Of a stretch of DNA of 64,000 nt, positions 8,666 to 50,414 are shown piece by piece. How positions within the stretch are numbered: the stretch's first letter is position 1; each line of letters starts with the position of its first letter. The position numbers and the translations under genes are program-made. The notes under the pieces are model-generated. The model had not been told where the DNA came from. It saw only the letters and a program-made list of their open reading frames with translations, and did no database searches. This stretch comes from Thermodesulfobacteriota bacterium (lineage in GTDB: Bacteria; Desulfobacterota; Desulfobulbia; Desulfobulbales; SURF-16), in contig JBMONO010000034.1 of NCBI GenBank assembly GCA_049323655.1, positions 45,354-109,353 on the forward strand, in the 5' to 3' direction.

Positions 8666-9559
8666 TCAGGGCCCGGCGGTGGACTGCCGGAGGAGAAAGT
8701 CGTAAAAGGCCTTGTAGTGGGCCGGCAGGGTGCGTTTTTTGTGGGTGGCGATAAAAAACTCTCGACCCATCCTAATGCCGAGGTCAAGCTCGACCAGGGA
8801 GCCGGCGGCCAGTTCATCGGTAATGGCCCGGCGCGAGAGTATGGAGGTGCCGAGCCCGGCCTTGAGCGCCTGCTTGATCGAGTCGCTGGAGCCCAGCACC
8901 GCCACCACGTTCATCTTCTTCAAATGGATGTCCATGGTCAGGAGAAATTCCTCCATGTTTTTGCGGGTACCGGAGCCTTCCTCACGCAAAAGAAACGGCA
9001 GCCGGTAGAGATCGAGGGTTTTTCGTGTCTTGCCGGTCAGCAAGGCCGGCGGCCCGGCAAAGACCAGTTCGTCTCCGAGAAAGGGCTCGTAGTGCAGGAT
9101 CTTGGGCTCCATACTGGCGCCGACAATGCCCATGAAAAATTCATGACTGATCAGCATGTCGGTGACCCTGCGGGTGTCGGCGATGACGATTTCAAAAGAG
9201 ACCTCCGGGTATGTCTCCCGGAAGCGAGCGGCAAGGACTGGAAGCATGTAATTGCCGGGGATGGTGCTGGCTCCGAGCAGCAGTTTGCCTCTGACCCGCT
9301 CGCCGCTTTTCAGGACGATCTCGTTGATTTTTTCCAGATCCTCGATGAGCTGCAGGGCCCGGGGGAAGATCAGATCCGCCTCGCTGGTCGGTTCGATTTT
9401 TCTGCCCAGCCGGTCAAAGAGCAGGCAGCCGAGGGAGCGTTCCAGGTTTTTAATGTGTTCACTGATGGTCGGCTGGCTGATGAAGAGCTGTTCCGACGCC
9501 TTGGAAAAACTCCGGTTACGATAAACGGAAACAAAGATACGTAGTTGATGGATATCCAT
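8666..9559 (-). CDS. LysR-family transcriptional regulator (CysL / selenium-metabolism-associated type)
   Basis: N-terminal LysR HTH (SFSKASEQLFISQPTISEHIKNLE), GASTIPGNY, REEGSGTR. Confidence 0.9.
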   Translation of the reverse strand: MDIHQLRIFVSVYRNRSFSKASEQLFISQPTISEHIKNLERSLGCLLFDRLGRKIEPTSEADLIFPRALQLIEDLEKINEIVLKSGERVRGKLLLGASTIPGNYMLPVLAARFRETYPEVSFEIVIADTRRVTDMLISHEFFMGIVGASMEPKILHYEPFLGDELVFAGPPALLTGKTRKTLDLYRLPFLLREEGSGTRKNMEEFLLTMDIHLKKMNVVAVLGSSDSIKQALKAGLGTSILSRRAITDELAAGSLVELDLGIRMGREFFIATHKKRTLPAHYKAFYDFLLRQSTAGP

Positions 9560-23578: not shown

Positions 23579-24142
23579 ATGTCCATGCTTGATTTCATCA
23601 TCATTTTTTTAGTTGCCGTTTTCCTTGTCAGGGGAATCTGGATCGGCTTTGTCCGACAGCTCGCCTCCATCGCTGCGCTGGTGCTGGGTTTTGTCATTGC
23701 CGGCCGTTGTTATGGCGAATCGGCCGCTTTTGTCACTCCTTTTGTCCGTGACCCTCAGCTCGGTTTTTTTATTGCGTATCTGGTTCTTTTTGCCGCCGTC
23801 TTCGGGGCCGTCATTCTGCTCGGCGTTTTTCTTCGCCAGGTCGTCACCCTTTCGCTGCTCGGCTGGTTTGACCGGATGCTGGGTGGTGTTTTCGGCATCG
23901 CCAAGGCTGCACTGCTCTCCTGTCTGCTGGTTATGTCTGCAGGTCTCGTCGTCTCGGGCTCCCACCCTTTTTTCCGCAGCTCGTCCCTTTATCCCTATCT
24001 GGAAAACGGCTCACAATTGCTGCTCATCCTCATTCGCGACCGCCAGCTCCGCGACTCCCTCTGGCCCCGGCTGCCCGCTATCGTCCCTATGTCTGATTCC
24101 CCGGTACAAACGGGCAAGCCGGTCCGGAGTGGCGCCGAGTAA
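23579..24142 (+). CDS. cvpA: CvpA-family membrane protein
   Basis: LDFIII...RGIWIGFVRQL, DRMLGGVFGIAK; four hydrophobic segments. Confidence 0.88.
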   Translation: MSMLDFIIIFLVAVFLVRGIWIGFVRQLASIAALVLGFVIAGRCYGESAAFVTPFVRDPQLGFFIAYLVLFAAVFGAVILLGVFLRQVVTLSLLGWFDRMLGGVFGIAKAALLSCLLVMSAGLVVSGSHPFFRSSSLYPYLENGSQLLLILIRDRQLRDSLWPRLPAIVPMSDSPVQTGKPVRSGAE

Positions 24143-24781
24143 AAAACCCGCAACCATCAGCTGATTGAGCAGTGTTGTTCGTATTATCCCCAGTTGCCGC
24201 CAGCGTCGGTCCGAGGTCAGGGCGGTTTCGGCAAGCAGTCTGATTCTCCCTTTTTTGCGAAGACGGCGGACCAGGCAGAAGTCTTCCATGATCGGCATCT
24301 CGGGATATCCACCGAGTTCAATAAAATCCACTCTTTTCAGAAAGATGCCCTGATCGCCGTAGGGCAGTTTCAGGAGGCGAGCGCGAAGGTTTGCCAGTTT
24401 GGCGATCAAGCGCAGCCCGCCGCCTGGCCCGTCGATACCCAGGCGAAACGCGCCGGCAATCCATTTTCCCGATGTCATGGTCTCTTCCACTGCTGCCATG
24501 AATCCATTTGGCAGACGTGTGTCGCCATGGAGAAACAGCAGGATATCGCCCCTTGCCGCTGTTGCACCGACGTTCATTTGCCTGGCCCGGCCCTTTTCCG
24601 TTTCCATCACCATGGCCCCTTGCTGTGCTGCGATATCCCTGGTACGGTCGGAGCTGCCGCCGTCAACGACCACGATTTCCAGGCCTTGAGCGCTCCCCAG
24701 GGAGTGCAGGGTGCGGCCGATATACTCCTCTTCGTTGTACACCGGAATGATGATGGTAAGAATCGGCTTTTTCCTGTCCAT
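24011..24781 (-). CDS. GT2 glycosyltransferase, TIGR04283 type (rSAM/selenodomain- and arsenosugar-associated)
   Basis: IIIPVYNEE, VVDGGSSD, GRARQMN.GA, FLHGDT, LPYGDQGIF, GGYPEMPIMED, SDRRW. Confidence 0.88.
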   Translation of the reverse strand: MDRKKPILTIIIPVYNEEEYIGRTLHSLGSAQGLEIVVVDGGSSDRTRDIAAQQGAMVMETEKGRARQMNVGATAARGDILLFLHGDTRLPNGFMAAVEETMTSGKWIAGAFRLGIDGPGGGLRLIAKLANLRARLLKLPYGDQGIFLKRVDFIELGGYPEMPIMEDFCLVRRLRKKGRIRLLAETALTSDRRWRQLGIIRTTLLNQLMVAGFLLGATPDRLARLYRGIRHRDDSGQPGPEGVAELAVANEDEQQL

Positions 24782-24786
24782 TATTG

Positions 24787-25440
24787 TCAGATGTCGATCC
24801 CGGTGAGTAGCTCAGGTAAGTTATTTGCCAGCAGGGCCAGATCTTCCGGCCGGTCGATGTCGGGCAGCGGTGGCAGCATGGCAACGGTTATGTTGTGCGC
24901 TTTGCACTTGTCCATCGTCTGCCGCAGAACACCTTCCCCTCCCCAGTTTATGTTCTCCCACAGAAGATCAGCCGGTCTGTTCAGGCCGAGCAGATAATAG
25001 CCGCCGTCATGGGCCGGGCCGATTACCGCATCCCGCGTCCCCAGCAAGTTAAAGGCCTCGTCAAGCAATTCTGCGGTGAGAAAGGGGCAATCAGCGCCGA
25101 TGATGACGGTGCGGGCCGCATCGCAGGCAAATGCCGTGTTGACCGCATGGCGCATCCGCATGCCTAGATCTCCCCCGTGCTGTTTTTTGACGGCGCATCC
25201 GATCGGCACCCACCTTCGGACTTCTTTAGTTGACCCGCCGTCGAAATAAACTTCGACCCGCAGTGCCCGCTTTTCCTGCATTGCCAGGGCCTGTCTATAC
25301 ATCAGTTCAGTCATCCGCTGCTGGAGTCTGGCCGCCCCTTCTGCGCCCAAGGCCGGGATCAGCCGCGTTTTGACCAAGCCCGGGCGCGGGTAGCGGGTAA
25401 ATAGTAATAGCGTTTCGAGGGGAAGATTTGGTAGTGTCAT
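24787..25440 (-). CDS. TIGR04282-type (DUF2064, CofC-like) transferase
   Basis: FTRYPRPGLVKTRLIP, QHGGDLGMRM, IGADCP, GPAHDGGYYLLG, DIDRPEDL. Confidence 0.88.
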   Translation of the reverse strand: MTLPNLPLETLLLFTRYPRPGLVKTRLIPALGAEGAARLQQRMTELMYRQALAMQEKRALRVEVYFDGGSTKEVRRWVPIGCAVKKQHGGDLGMRMRHAVNTAFACDAARTVIIGADCPFLTAELLDEAFNLLGTRDAVIGPAHDGGYYLLGLNRPADLLWENINWGGEGVLRQTMDKCKAHNITVAMLPPLPDIDRPEDLALLANNLPELLTGIDI

Positions 25441-25488: not shown

Positions 25489-26268
25489 ATGAAAAGAAAA
25501 CGCAATAAAGAAAAGAGAATAGACCCCCTTTCCTATCGGGAACGCCATTACCGGCAACGGGTGACTACCGACGGCCTGATCCCTTACCGGGTGACAGTCT
25601 GTGAGACCGATCTGCTTATCCTGGCCGATCATGATGTCCGCGAGGATGCTACCAGGCTTGTCCTCCATTACCGATCCCAGCTGGAGGGTTATATTTCCCG
25701 TTTTCCCGATTTTCTCTCCTCTCTAGTTCCTTTGCCGGAGGACACATTAGCCTGTCCGATTGCTCGCGCCATGCTATGGGCCGGCAGGGTCGCTGGCGTT
25801 GGGCCGATGGCGGCGGTGGCCGGTGCCATCGCTGAATATGTCGGCACCGATCTGATCCGCTCCGGGGTAACCGGCGAAATTCTCATTGAAAACGGCGGTG
25901 ACATTTTTGTCTCTCGGCAGCGGTCCTGCTCTGTGGCAATTTATTCCGGAGCCTCGCCGCTCAGCAACAGGATCGGTATCCGGATTTCGACCGCCCTCAT
26001 GCCCCTCGGCGTCTGTACCTCATCCGGCACTATTGGTCACTCGCTGAGCTTCGGACAGGCCGACTCGGTTACCGTGCTGGCGCGCTCGACGCCGCTGGCC
26101 GATGCAGCTGCCACCCGGATCGGCAACGAGATAAAGGCGCGAACCGATATCGAGCATGCCCTGGCCGTTGCCCGCGCCCTTCCCGGACTGATCGGGGTGG
26201 TGATTGTTCACCATGACCAGCTCGGCATCTGGGGCGACATCGAACTGGTCCCTTTAACGGGCGGCTGA
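25489..26268 (+). CDS. UPF0280 family ApbE-like protein
   Basis: VGPMAAVAGAIAE, IENGGDI, GVCTSSGTIGHSLSFGQADSV, ADAAATRIGN. Confidence 0.88.
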   Translation: MKRKRNKEKRIDPLSYRERHYRQRVTTDGLIPYRVTVCETDLLILADHDVREDATRLVLHYRSQLEGYISRFPDFLSSLVPLPEDTLACPIARAMLWAGRVAGVGPMAAVAGAIAEYVGTDLIRSGVTGEILIENGGDIFVSRQRSCSVAIYSGASPLSNRIGIRISTALMPLGVCTSSGTIGHSLSFGQADSVTVLARSTPLADAAATRIGNEIKARTDIEHALAVARALPGLIGVVIVHHDQLGIWGDIELVPLTGG

Positions 26269-47123: not shown

Positions 47124-50100
47124 TCAGATCACCAGGGCGACCGGCAGCCCCGTCTCCGCGCCCCGATCACGGCTGTCCCAGAGCAGGCAGCCCTTGCGGA
47201 TACACTCGCGATTATGCGGGTACTGGTTGCAGTGGAGAGTATCTGCGGCAACCAGTGTAACCGGCAGCAGGTCATGCGAGAGGCGGCCGGCCTCCTGCAG
47301 GGCGATGACGCTTTCCCGCTGACAGCAGCGACCGGCCCGGATTGCGGCTATTTTTTCGAGAACCTGGGCCGTGGCCTGCTGGGCCTGCTGCCGTTTGCCC
47401 GGGGTGAGCGGGGTCGCCTCGAGAATGACGGAAAAGGCGATCCCCACTCCGAGGGCGGCGCCACAACCGCCCCAGAAACCGCAGACTCCGCCCGGCACCC
47501 GGCTGCCGCGCTCAATGGCGGCGAGGATGTCTTTTTTTCCGGCCTTGCCGCCCCGGGCCCGGTAGGCGGAGAGGATGACGCCGGGGATGATGGCATGGTG
47601 CTCCGGTCCATGCATGGAGATGGCGGACTGCGATCTGATTTTTTTCAGCAGGATGATCATGTCCTCCACCGCTGACTCGGTGCAGATCTTTTTAATAACC
47701 GCCAAGCCCTTGTCCTGATGACAGTTGTCACAGACGAAATGGCCGTGCAGGCAGACGGCGTTCGCCTCTTTCTCCTCTCCGCAATAATGGCAGGTTGTGG
47801 CCCGATCCCGGGTGAAGTAGCGCAACTCGCAGCCGCAGACCATGCAGTCGCTGTGCTGGCGCCGATCGCTTGCCGCTGGCGAGGAACAGCAGGAGAGGGC
47901 GGGGCTGTTCTCCGGCGGCAGACCGCAGCAGCCTCCGCCCTGGTCGATATTGATCACTGCGCCCTCCTGGTTCAAAATAAAGACCGATTCGTCTAGTCCG
48001 GCCAGATCAGCTGCCGCGATCCGGGTTTTTTCCCCTTTGAGCAGCAGTTTGCCGCTCTCGGTGTAGACGCCGGCAAACGGCCCGCGGTAGATGACTTGGG
48101 CCGTCTCGGGCACGGCCGGCTTCCAGGCAAGGAAGGTAAGTGAATAAAAACGGGTGTTCCCAACGCTGCGATAGGGAAAACGTTTGAGGAGGCGCACTGC
48201 AACAAAGCCGGTGGCGCAAAGCATGGCCAGTAGTTCCGTTTGTCGCATGGCGCCGCCCAGACACTCACCCCGCAGTTTTTCGTCGTTTTTGATCGCAGGC
48301 GGCACCGCCTCGTCGGTGACGATGTCAGCCACCACCAGCCTACCGCCGGGGCGGAGGATACGGAAGGCCTCGTGCAGGGTGCGGCGTTTGTCCGGGCTCA
48401 GATTGATGACGCAGTTGGAGATCACCGCATCGGCAATGCTGTCCTCCAGGGGGATTTCTTCGAGAAAACCCTTGCGAAACTCGACGTTGTCAAAGCCGAG
48501 ACGTTGTGCCACCTCGCGTTGGGAAGAGCGGGCCAGGGTCAGCATGGCGTCGGTCATGTCGATGCCGTAGACCCTGCCGGCGGAGCCCACCATTGCCGCG
48601 CCCTGAAAGCACTCGACCCCGCTGCCGCTGCCAAGATCAACCAGGGTTTCGCCCTGGGAGAGGAAGGCGTCCCGGACCGGGCTGCCGCAGCCATAGGAGC
48701 GCTGGCGGGACACCGCCGGAATGAAATCCTCCTCCTGCTGGCGGTCGGCAAAGGGGTTGACGATTTCCGCATTGGCCTCCTGGGCGGCCCGTCCGTAAAA
48801 TTCCCGTACCGTGGCATGACCCCGGTCGTCCCCGAGGGAGACGACGCAGTTGCAGTGGGTCAGCGCCACCGCGCCTCCCTCCGGGCAGTCATGACGGACA
48901 TCGCCCATGCGCAGCAGGATCGATCCCTCTGTCTGCGTTGAATAGCATCCGGCCTGGCGGGCAATAAGCCAGAGGGCCATGCGGTTGTAAAGCTCGACAT
49001 AGGGATCATGGCCGGTGAAGGAACCGCCGCGTAAGTAGCTGTGGTCGATATCGCCGCCGCCGATGAGAAAACGCAGGGGATTTTCCTCGTAGGCGGAGCC
49101 GGCAATGGTTGTCTGGCGCAAGTCTGCGAGCAGCGGGCTCGTGCGCCACACCTGTTCGAGTCCCTCGGTGAGAACACCACAACGCAGCGCGGGAATGGCC
49201 ACCAGGGCCGGCGAGGGGTAGATCGCCCCGTCCGGACCGACGGCCAGGGATTCCCAGCCGCTGTTGCTGAGGTCAAAGCGGGTGCCGGGAGAGGAGAATA
49301 CCTGGCTTTTCAGTGCCTCGACGTTATCTACCATGATGCCGAGGTGTTCTGCGAGTTCCAGGGCCGGTCGCAGATGGGTCCAGATTTCATCCGGCGGCAC
49401 GAACTGGTTGCTGCTGCCCTTGCCCCGGACAAAGTGCCAGAGCAGGTGGAGATTGCCGACCTCCATGTCTCCGGCAAGGGAAACGATGGCGGAGAGTTCC
49501 GCCACGTTGTGCCGGTTGACCGCCACCGACAGAGTGGGGCGGATGTGGTGGTCCCGGAGAAAGGTGAGGTTATCGAGCAGTCTGGCAAAGGTGCCGGTGC
49601 CGCGCAGGCGTTCGTGGTTCTCTTCCAGTCCGTCGAGACTGATCTGCAGATGAAGCCGCTCCCGGTCGGCGCGGGTAAAAAATGCCCCGTGCTCCCGCAG
49701 AAGCAGGCCATTGGTCAGCACCACCGTATGGCAGTGCGGATCCGCAGCCAGCAGGTCACAAAGGACATCGGAAAAGTGCGGGTAGATAAAGGGCTCGCCG
49801 CCGGTAAAATAAAAGATGGTGCAGCCCAGCTCTCGCGCCTCTGCCATGGCGCGGCGCAGATCGACCTCGGGCAGGGCAGCCGGCGAGGCCGGAGAGGCGC
49901 TGAACAGGCAGTGGCGGCAGGCCAGATTGCAGGCGTCGGTAAGATGGAACCAGCATTCTTTCAGGCGGGTGAGTGAGAGCACCTGGCCGCGGCCGGCGTA
50001 TGGCGGGGTCGGCTCCCGTTCGGTCAGGGCGCGGAGGCGGGCCAGGTGCAGTGTCTGCATCTCCCCTGGTCGGGTTTGATTGGAGAGCAAGGAGTCGGTT

Positions 50101-50204
50101 TGGCCATCGGCGACAAACCAGTCCGGAATGTCGGGGGCAACATAGATGGCGTAACCGTCAAACTCGAATCTTTTCCAGTGCGGTGAGGATTTCGTCGTAT
50201 TCAT
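47124..50204 (-). CDS. Fusion: radical SAM + degenerate SPASM + ArsM-type As(III) methyltransferase + Cys-rich DUF5714-like domain
   Basis: CNLACRHC (49908-49931), FTGGEP; YGCGSP, DLGSGSG, GIDMT, ISNCVINL, GECLGGA; C-terminal CMVCG/CHYCG/CDNCH, HGPEHH, CGFWGGCG, RCCQRE. Confidence 0.82.
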   Translation of the reverse strand: MNTTKSSPHWKRFEFDGYAIYVAPDIPDWFVADGQTDSLLSNQTRPGEMQTLHLARLRALTEREPTPPYAGRGQVLSLTRLKECWFHLTDACNLACRHCLFSASPASPAALPEVDLRRAMAEARELGCTIFYFTGGEPFIYPHFSDVLCDLLAADPHCHTVVLTNGLLLREHGAFFTRADRERLHLQISLDGLEENHERLRGTGTFARLLDNLTFLRDHHIRPTLSVAVNRHNVAELSAIVSLAGDMEVGNLHLLWHFVRGKGSSNQFVPPDEIWTHLRPALELAEHLGIMVDNVEALKSQVFSSPGTRFDLSNSGWESLAVGPDGAIYPSPALVAIPALRCGVLTEGLEQVWRTSPLLADLRQTTIAGSAYEENPLRFLIGGGDIDHSYLRGGSFTGHDPYVELYNRMALWLIARQAGCYSTQTEGSILLRMGDVRHDCPEGGAVALTHCNCVVSLGDDRGHATVREFYGRAAQEANAEIVNPFADRQQEEDFIPAVSRQRSYGCGSPVRDAFLSQGETLVDLGSGSGVECFQGAAMVGSAGRVYGIDMTDAMLTLARSSQREVAQRLGFDNVEFRKGFLEEIPLEDSIADAVISNCVINLSPDKRRTLHEAFRILRPGGRLVVADIVTDEAVPPAIKNDEKLRGECLGGAMRQTELLAMLCATGFVAVRLLKRFPYRSVGNTRFYSLTFLAWKPAVPETAQVIYRGPFAGVYTESGKLLLKGEKTRIAAADLAGLDESVFILNQEGAVINIDQGGGCCGLPPENSPALSCCSSPAASDRRQHSDCMVCGCELRYFTRDRATTCHYCGEEKEANAVCLHGHFVCDNCHQDKGLAVIKKICTESAVEDMIILLKKIRSQSAISMHGPEHHAIIPGVILSAYRARGGKAGKKDILAAIERGSRVPGGVCGFWGGCGAALGVGIAFSVILEATPLTPGKRQQAQQATAQVLEKIAAIRAGRCCQRESVIALQEAGRLSHDLLPVTLVAADTLHCNQYPHNRECIRKGCLLWDSRDRGAETGLPVALVI

Positions 50205-50414
50205 GGCAAAATTAGGGTAAAGTGACGCGTTAATCGCGGCGGACCACGGAGGGTCGTGGCCTTTTCGCCGCATCGACCTACCCTATCATAAATGTCGTTT
50301 TCTGCAATCAGGATTGCTGTCCTGGCCCAGGAAGGCAGGATTAATTCTTCATCACAACAAAAAAATGCAATTGTGCCCCGGACCGGCGGCACCAGTGAAA
50401 ACAACGATAAGACC

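Follow-up and report, generated by a model that had tools for sequence, protein, structure and literature searches.

The cyanobacterial arsenosugar pathway, represented by Synechocystis-type ArsM and ArsS and by the families TIGR04167, TIGR04169, TIGR04282 and TIGR04283, is the described system with which the locus reported here can most directly be compared. ArsS adenosylates dimethylarsenite to yield 5'-deoxy-5'-dimethylarsinoyladenosine (PMC13598754; Cheng et al. 2021 as cited in PMC12159101, reference 61). The window, that is, the whole 64,000-nt stretch of DNA analysed here, lies on contig C34 of a 3.56-Mb assembly (99.64% complete) of an anaerobic Desulfobulbia metagenome-assembled genome (MAG) and carries a gene pair, T1 (TIGR04282/DUF2064) and T2 (TIGR04283), which belongs to the same two transferase families as the cyanobacterial genes. 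To our knowledge, no enzymes have been assigned to the reactions that follow ArsS on the way to arsenosugars and arsenolipids, cyanobacteria included, and the NCBI names of TIGR04282 and TIGR04283 rest on gene context alone.

As in the cyanobacterial pathway, there is also a radical S-adenosylmethionine (SAM) partner and an ArsM-type domain in which the As(III) cysteine motifs are retained, here both in a single protein, hereafter the fusion. In contrast to that pathway, ArsS and TIGR04169 are missing, a SPASM/maturase-like radical SAM domain is joined to ArsM and DUF5714 in one polypeptide, and the genes are spread over 22 kb and a second contig. Both T1 and T2 are ordinary members of named families and the link to ArsS is already contained in their NCBI names; what differs here is the partner, the fusion instead of ArsS, and the dispersed layout. 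The comparative analysis makes it likely that the pair and the fusion are functionally linked, and on balance it is probable that T1 and T2 carry out the late half, the steps on the sugar, of an organoarsenical pathway of the arsenosugar type, and that the fusion replaces ArsS as the early half. It also appears reasonably probable that the early half is provided by ArsS in most bacteria of the phylum and by the fusion in this genome and family, with the pathway distributed over at least two loci.

Association of the transferase pair with ArsS or the fusion

The initial annotation had proposed that the pair acts on the product of the fusion 22 kb away as a split pathway, a proposal which is supported by comparative genomics, namely by co-occurrence, by near-exclusion of the fusion with ArsS and by adjacency in other genomes. 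In an evenly drawn sample of 401 genomes of the phylum, in which the fusion was called from query coverage across both the radical SAM and the methyltransferase parts, TIGR04282 was found in 204 genomes, ArsS in 143 and the fusion in 34 (20 families). TIGR04282 was present in all 34 fusion genomes, against a base rate of 204/401, and the fusion was found in none of the 197 TIGR04282-negative genomes (Fisher test of fusion versus T1, 3e-11, a value whose support is overstated by the kinship of the genomes). TIGR04282 likewise accompanied ArsS in 133 of the 143 ArsS genomes. ArsS and the fusion occurred together in three genomes only, indicating near mutual exclusion (odds ratio 0.03 and p = 8e-14 within T1-positive genomes, likewise overstated by kinship). 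Among 14 control genomes, ArsS and T1 were both above their cut-offs only in the cyanobacterium.

The close relatives of the present genome are uncultured Desulfobulbia/Thermodesulfobacteriota MAGs. A second set comprised 41 genomes from its genus, family and order, in which a long fusion was scored as DUF5714 inside an open frame of more than 1000 amino acids (aa). TIGR04282 exceeded its cut-off in 34/41, the long fusion was present in 22/41 and ArsS in 8/41, and no genome of the 41 had both ArsS and the long fusion. Two fusion-bearing relatives, G023 and G025 (70% and 77% complete), gave no TIGR04282 match. Six T1-positive relatives were first scored as having neither partner; of these six, G027 and G038 proved to carry an ortholog of the radical SAM and methyltransferase parts of the fusion without DUF5714 (53% and 60-61% identity), and two others are 77-80% complete. 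DUF5714 was rejected as a marker of the fusion for this reason, as it undercounts, and the whole fusion was therefore used as the phylum-level query. In G027 the ortholog is encoded by two overlapping open reading frames (ORFs; L099:14-2322), for a radical SAM protein of 543 aa and a methyltransferase of 365 aa, reflecting either a frameshift or a true split. G021, a member of the same family without the long fusion, encodes two canonical ArsS::ArsM fusions of 665 and 697 aa (L063:9873-11870 (+) and L068:9821-11914 (+)), the former with DedA genes beside it; these proteins are a direct analogue of the window fusion architecture, built on a standard ArsS.

Loci were then fetched from other genomes and their ORFs labelled by BLAST against the window proteins. 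T1/T2 directly adjoin a fusion ortholog in G111 (as overlapping ORFs), G121, G334, G240, G238, G177 and G188 (the last from match coordinates), and lie within 3-5 kb of one in G009, G363, G421 and G324. In at least eight families the pair is next to the fusion or only a few kb from it. DUF5714 is encoded by a separate gene in G238. In other genomes the pair is a direct neighbour of ArsS (G028, G162, G092, G090, G126, G120, G384, G103, G134, G203 and G355), and the adjacency is operon-like both to the fusion (L057, L069-L076) and to ArsS (L054, L078-L088). The wider spacing of the window has its own counterparts. The split over about 22 kb is conserved within the genus, and a pair-fusion distance of ~20-24 kb recurs in G001, G003 and G020 and in G273 of another family, which suggests that the split is old and stable in the lineage.

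In a maximum-likelihood tree of concatenated T1 and T2 from 29 loci, fusion- and ArsS-partnered pairs are intermixed, and their distribution calls for at least four to five switches. The fusion-partnered pair of G009 is sister to the ArsS-partnered pair of G028 (support 99), that of G240 groups with those of G120 and G384, both with ArsS (support 98), and those of G121 and G334 are sister to the ArsS-partnered pair of G241. As judged from these sequences, the partner of T1/T2 has been exchanged repeatedly, one transferase lineage serving either ArsS or the fusion. The interleaving is the strongest argument that both partners deliver a similar intermediate, and it amounts to a natural swap experiment in which the same pair serves ArsS or a non-homologous radical SAM domain fused to ArsM.

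At the level of the order, the pair belongs to a conserved block (Crp, phosphopantetheinyl transferase (PPTase), CvpA, T2-T1 and UPF0280) which occurs together with ArsS (G029, G030, G032 and G021) or with the fusion. The initial annotation had pointed to the lack of the usual radical SAM partner next door; this is true here but is not unusual, as the same layout is seen in the ArsS genomes of the order. The block lies apart from either partner, and the absence of a partner next door is therefore the rule in this lineage. A block that stays the same whichever radical SAM partner is present would also fit a pair that works independently of the fusion, in envelope glycosylation or in salvage of a 5-deoxyribose-type SAM by-product, with co-occurrence reflecting ancestry and anaerobic lifestyle. 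The same explanation would accommodate the 40 of the 204 T1-positive phylum genomes that were scored with neither partner, as well as G040 of the relatives set (99% complete), in which neither ArsS nor any radical SAM::ArsM fusion was found and the pair forms a T2-T1-kinase operon (L059:8842-11262) with a 353-aa protein of the APH/choline-kinase fold. This operon may represent a salvage-type entry into the transferase pair. However, none of the 34 fusion genomes of the phylum lacks T1, the only exceptions among the relatives being the two incomplete genomes G023 and G025, and the direct adjacency or overlap with the fusion extends across many families. Although radical SAM enzymes are numerous in every genome, the distribution of T1 follows only ArsS and the ones fused to ArsM. 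Moreover, radical SAM::ArsM fusions of another kind, in which the radical SAM domain differs, are encoded in three of the phylum genomes with neither partner (G057, 828 aa; G098; G317), and among the relatives G027 and G038, first scored likewise, carry the orthologs described above. We consider independence of the pair from the fusion quite unlikely.

Architecture of the fusion and the element handled

The near end of the fusion lies 21.7 kb from T1/T2, and no other radical SAM/ArsM-like gene was found in the window. The fusion consists of a radical SAM/SPASM-type domain (residues ~100-425), an ArsM-like methyltransferase domain (~487-784) and DUF5714 (860-1031). In the whole genome no canonical ArsS was found, the best TIGR04167 match (41 bits, cut-off 300) being the radical SAM domain of the fusion itself. 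Besides the fusion, the genome has a single ArsM-like gene, which encodes a stand-alone methyltransferase with in-frame TGA on contig C27 (L090:5818-6798 (+)), which scores below every family cut-off and most resembles the ArsM/AhpD and MTase/UXPK-star selenoprotein models, again below their cut-offs. A separate canonical arsS-arsM, which together with a lack of co-occurrence of the fusion with the pair would have refuted the split pathway according to the initial annotation, was looked for throughout this nearly complete genome and not found.

The missing ArsS could also mean that the pair is a decaying, now functionless remnant left after ArsS loss. The last ~25 aa of T2, which overlap cvpA and are not conserved in 14 homologs, would agree with such decay. 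Both ORFs are nevertheless intact and full length, score above their cut-offs, keep every invariant residue and are predicted to adopt confident folds, and the arrangement has been retained by all four other members of the genus that were sampled and by most of the family, making a remnant highly improbable.

The methyltransferase domain scores below the cut-offs of both NCBI ArsM models, that is, the general NF008823 (219 bits when the protein was run through hmmscan, 223 when the genome was searched, cut-off 263) and the arsenosugar-type NF038099 (122 bits, cut-off 400). Its sequence can be aligned to the Chlamydomonas ArsM structure 5EVJ (1.7e-38), and all three As(III)-site cysteine motifs, GCG, SNCV and GECL, are conserved. 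A radical SAM enzyme and an ArsM-type methyltransferase also build a C-As natural product in the ArsL/ArsM arsinothricin pathway (bioRxiv 10.1101/2024.02.01.577332). That pathway differs in that ArsL moves an aminocarboxypropyl group and neither a sugar nor T1/T2 genes are involved, and the fusion reaches 177 bits against NF040538, below the cut-off of 500.

Several features of the locus and its relatives could also be read as pointing to selenium, tellurium or antimony, with the gene module and its link to the fusion as described and a product such as a seleno-sugar or seleno-lipid; in that case the name 'arsenosugar' would be a misnomer in these anaerobes. Most of their ArsS proteins are selenoproteins (in-frame TGA), the DUF5714 domain of the fusion matches the selenoprotein MbdU model, and ArsS has been characterised from a cyanobacterium only (PMC13598754). 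Recurrent neighbouring genes bear NCBI names such as 'selenium metabolism-associated' or 'near Sec', including NF045663-like dicluster proteins and a LysR regulator at 8666-9559 (-) of the window (NF040786, 282.7 bits, cut-off 250), a homolog of which directly adjoins the fusion in G009. On the other side, the methyltransferase domain retains the three ArsM As(III)-site cysteine motifs and is nearest to solved ArsM structures, selenocysteine in an enzyme does not imply a selenium substrate, and the 'selenium-associated' names were themselves derived from gene context. Another element in place of arsenic is hence regarded as unlikely.

Predicted functions of T1 and T2 and a possible reaction order

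T1 scored 206.4 bits against TIGR04282 (whole-protein score, curated cut-off 134), 114.6 bits against Pfam DUF2064 (cut-off 25.8) and, more weakly, 27.3 bits against Pfam CofC PF01983 (cut-off 22). Its sequence matches PDB 3CGX (1e-28), a DUF2064 protein of the same family from Desulfovibrio desulfuricans G20, and this entry is also the top Foldseek match (TM 0.80) of the AlphaFold2 (AF2) model (predicted local distance difference test (pLDDT) score 94.7). As a structural genomics entry carrying no assigned function, 3CGX contributes the fold only. The next nearest folds, and the closest characterised structural relatives of T1, are the CofC/FbiD guanylyltransferases of F420 biosynthesis, 7P97 (3-phosphoglycerate guanylyltransferase), 6BWG/6BWH (FbiD/Rv2983) and 2I5E (CofC), with Foldseek E-values of 7e-11 to 5e-10 and TM of about 0.7; KdsB, IspD and GlmU follow further down. 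T1 keeps all 21 columns that are invariant in a 16-sequence alignment, including K24-x-R26-L27, G115-x-D117-x-P119, D145-G-G, D194 and D196, of which the K-x-R-L and G-x-D-x-P motifs are common to CofC/FbiD. T1 is not itself a member of that group, given 16-19% identity, a context unrelated to F420 and a score of 36 bits against TIGR03552 (cut-off 105). Enzymes of the CofC/FbiD type couple a phosphate monoester to a nucleoside monophosphate (NMP). Since the fold neighbours are nucleotidyltransferases and not glycosyltransferases, T1 is better called nucleotidyltransferase-like, and the NCBI name is probably inexact in this respect.

T2 scored 253.6 bits against TIGR04283 (whole-protein score, cut-off 182) and 71 bits against Glycos_transf_2 PF00535. 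Its AF2 model (pLDDT 89.8, with a disordered tail at residues 233-256 below 50) has a GT-A fold, and the nearest structural neighbours, 6P61, WrtF, TarS, GpgS and GtrB, are all users of nucleoside diphosphate (NDP) sugars. The GT-A fold and the NDP-sugar-type acidic motifs of the GT2 Leloir glycosyltransferases (MftF, WrtF, TarS, GpgS and GtrB) are also present in T2, the invariant residues being D40, H85, D87, G142-D-Q and E166-D167. T2 differs from these enzymes in falling below the cut-off of every named equivalog except TIGR04283, and from GtrB in being short and of soluble type, without the membrane helices.

Combining these predictions with the gene neighbourhoods, we tentatively propose an order of reactions from an adenosyl-arsenical through a ribose-1-phosphate derivative and an NDP-sugar to a glycoside, the substrates and products all being inferred. 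The fusion would methylate As(III) and form the C-As bond to give a 5'-deoxyadenosyl-type arsenical, from which a phosphorylase (or a nucleosidase together with a kinase) would free adenine to leave a 5-substituted ribose-1-phosphate. T1 would then couple this sugar-1-phosphate to an NMP, affording an NDP-sugar, and T2, acting as a Leloir-type GT2, would move the arsenoribosyl group to an acceptor. A methylthioadenosine phosphorylase (MTAP; TIGR01694, 275.1 bits versus a cut-off of 274.85) is encoded between ArsS and a fused T1T2 gene in G028, and a homolog occupies the same position in G355. An MTAP gene was also looked for in the present genome; no match exceeded the cut-off, and there is only a housekeeping-type purine nucleoside phosphorylase, on contig C37.

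Further genes recur around the pair. A DedA/VTT membrane protein (PF09335) is encoded in 15 of the examined loci, in some of them as a fusion with a 4Fe-4S dicluster/CCG domain or with an FAD disulfide-reductase. The present genome encodes a 610-aa dicluster::DedA protein on contig C17 (C17:59448-61280; L089:7449-9281 (+)), next to mobA and unlinked to the pair, orthologs of which lie inside the T1/T2-fusion cluster in G009, G177 and G238; this gene may be a third locus of the pathway. A fatty-acid-hydroxylase-family protein and DUF3047 are each found in four loci, and the AhpD-like protein TIGR04169 is encoded together with ArsS in 12 loci and with the fusion in none. The DedA and fatty-acid-hydroxylase neighbours suggest that the acceptor or the product is a lipid or a lipid head group. 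A bolder version, in which the fusion makes a C-As (or C-Se) intermediate unlike the ArsS product and T1/T2 together with dicluster::DedA convert it to a novel metalloid glycolipid of anaerobic sulfur bacteria, seems rather doubtful to us; if true, it would reveal an undescribed class of anaerobic organoarsenicals and provide a first functional assignment for DUF2064.

Several points weigh against assigning T1/T2 and the fusion to one arsenosugar-type pathway. The two are separated by 22 kb of DNA that carries unrelated housekeeping genes. G040 combines the pair with a kinase only, 40 T1-positive phylum genomes show neither partner, and the relatedness of the genomes renders the Fisher p-values too strong, the family count being the safer figure. 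No MTAP above the cut-off was found in the present genome. The radical SAM domain of the fusion is not ArsS-like, so that its product may differ from that of ArsS, and the context genes with 'selenium-associated' NCBI names bear on which element is handled. In the searchable literature on TIGR04282, TIGR04283, DUF2064, DUF5714 and the fusion, no functional study was found. If T1 and T2 do act as the late half of such a pathway, the fold of T1, its phosphorylase and kinase neighbours and the exchange of partners would together provide a concrete and testable reaction order, and would point to a widespread metabolism of complex organoarsenic (or a related metalloid) in anaerobic sediments, where usually only methylation is considered.

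Gene layout and local context

The features discussed are collected in Table 1. The initial annotation described tandem TIGR04282-like and TIGR04283-like genes 5 nt apart, and its coordinates are exact: the stop codon of T1 and the start codon of T2 are separated by a 5-nt spacer (TGA-CAATA-ATG), and both proteins exceed their curated cut-offs. It had also noted that no ArsS-type radical SAM enzyme or ArsM is adjacent, and indeed no radical SAM enzyme or methyltransferase is encoded among the flanking genes, which comprise cvpA, an Sfp-type PPTase, a Crp/Fnr regulator, UPF0280 and a HAD hydrolase.

Table 1 Location of the gene pair, its proposed partner and the adjoining divergent gene in the window
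Feature	Position	Strand	Length and basis
T1, TIGR04282/DUF2064 protein with predicted CofC/FbiD-like nucleotidyltransferase fold	24787-25440	(-)	217 aa; profile matches and predicted fold
T2, TIGR04283 family GT2 glycosyltransferase	24011-24781	(-)	256 aa; profile matches and predicted fold
Radical SAM::ArsM::DUF5714 fusion, proposed upstream partner	47124-50273	(-)	1049 aa; profile matches
UPF0280-type gene	25489-26268	(+)	NF003323, 281.8 bits (cut-off 271)

Genes on the opposite strand box in the pair on both sides, cvpA at the 3' end and UPF0280 48 nt upstream, and T1/T2 therefore looks like a self-contained two-gene operon. A promoter and terminator scan gave nothing above shuffled expectation. 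The convergent overlap between T2 and cvpA amounts to 132 nt (24011-24142), compared with 57-78 nt, or none, in relatives. UPF0280 adjoins T1 divergently in seven genomes of the order and is not found in the tight clusters of other families. UPF0280, the HAD hydrolase, PPTase, Crp and CvpA were accordingly rejected as pathway members, as their synteny is confined to the order and they are missing from the tight clusters elsewhere; they are probably neighbours by descent.

T1 and T2 are commonly encoded as a single T1::T2 polypeptide of 430-490 aa. N-terminal extensions of such proteins were considered as clues to the pathway and set aside, as they correspond either to an extra GT2/MobA-like domain or to a spurious ORF extension (L107). 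The former is seen in one family, in which proteins of about 680-716 aa (L109:4205-6256 (-), L110:1071-3221 (-) and L115:4645-6687 (-)) have the arrangement GT2/MobA-like, DUF2064 and GT2; the extra N-terminal domain is confirmed by Pfam for L109 and L110 and is inferred for L115 from the same domain layout. In addition, G104 encodes an unexpected sensor-kinase fusion of the T1 family, a 645-aa ORF (L112:5228-7165 (-)) with DUF2064, HisKA, HATPase and receiver domains.

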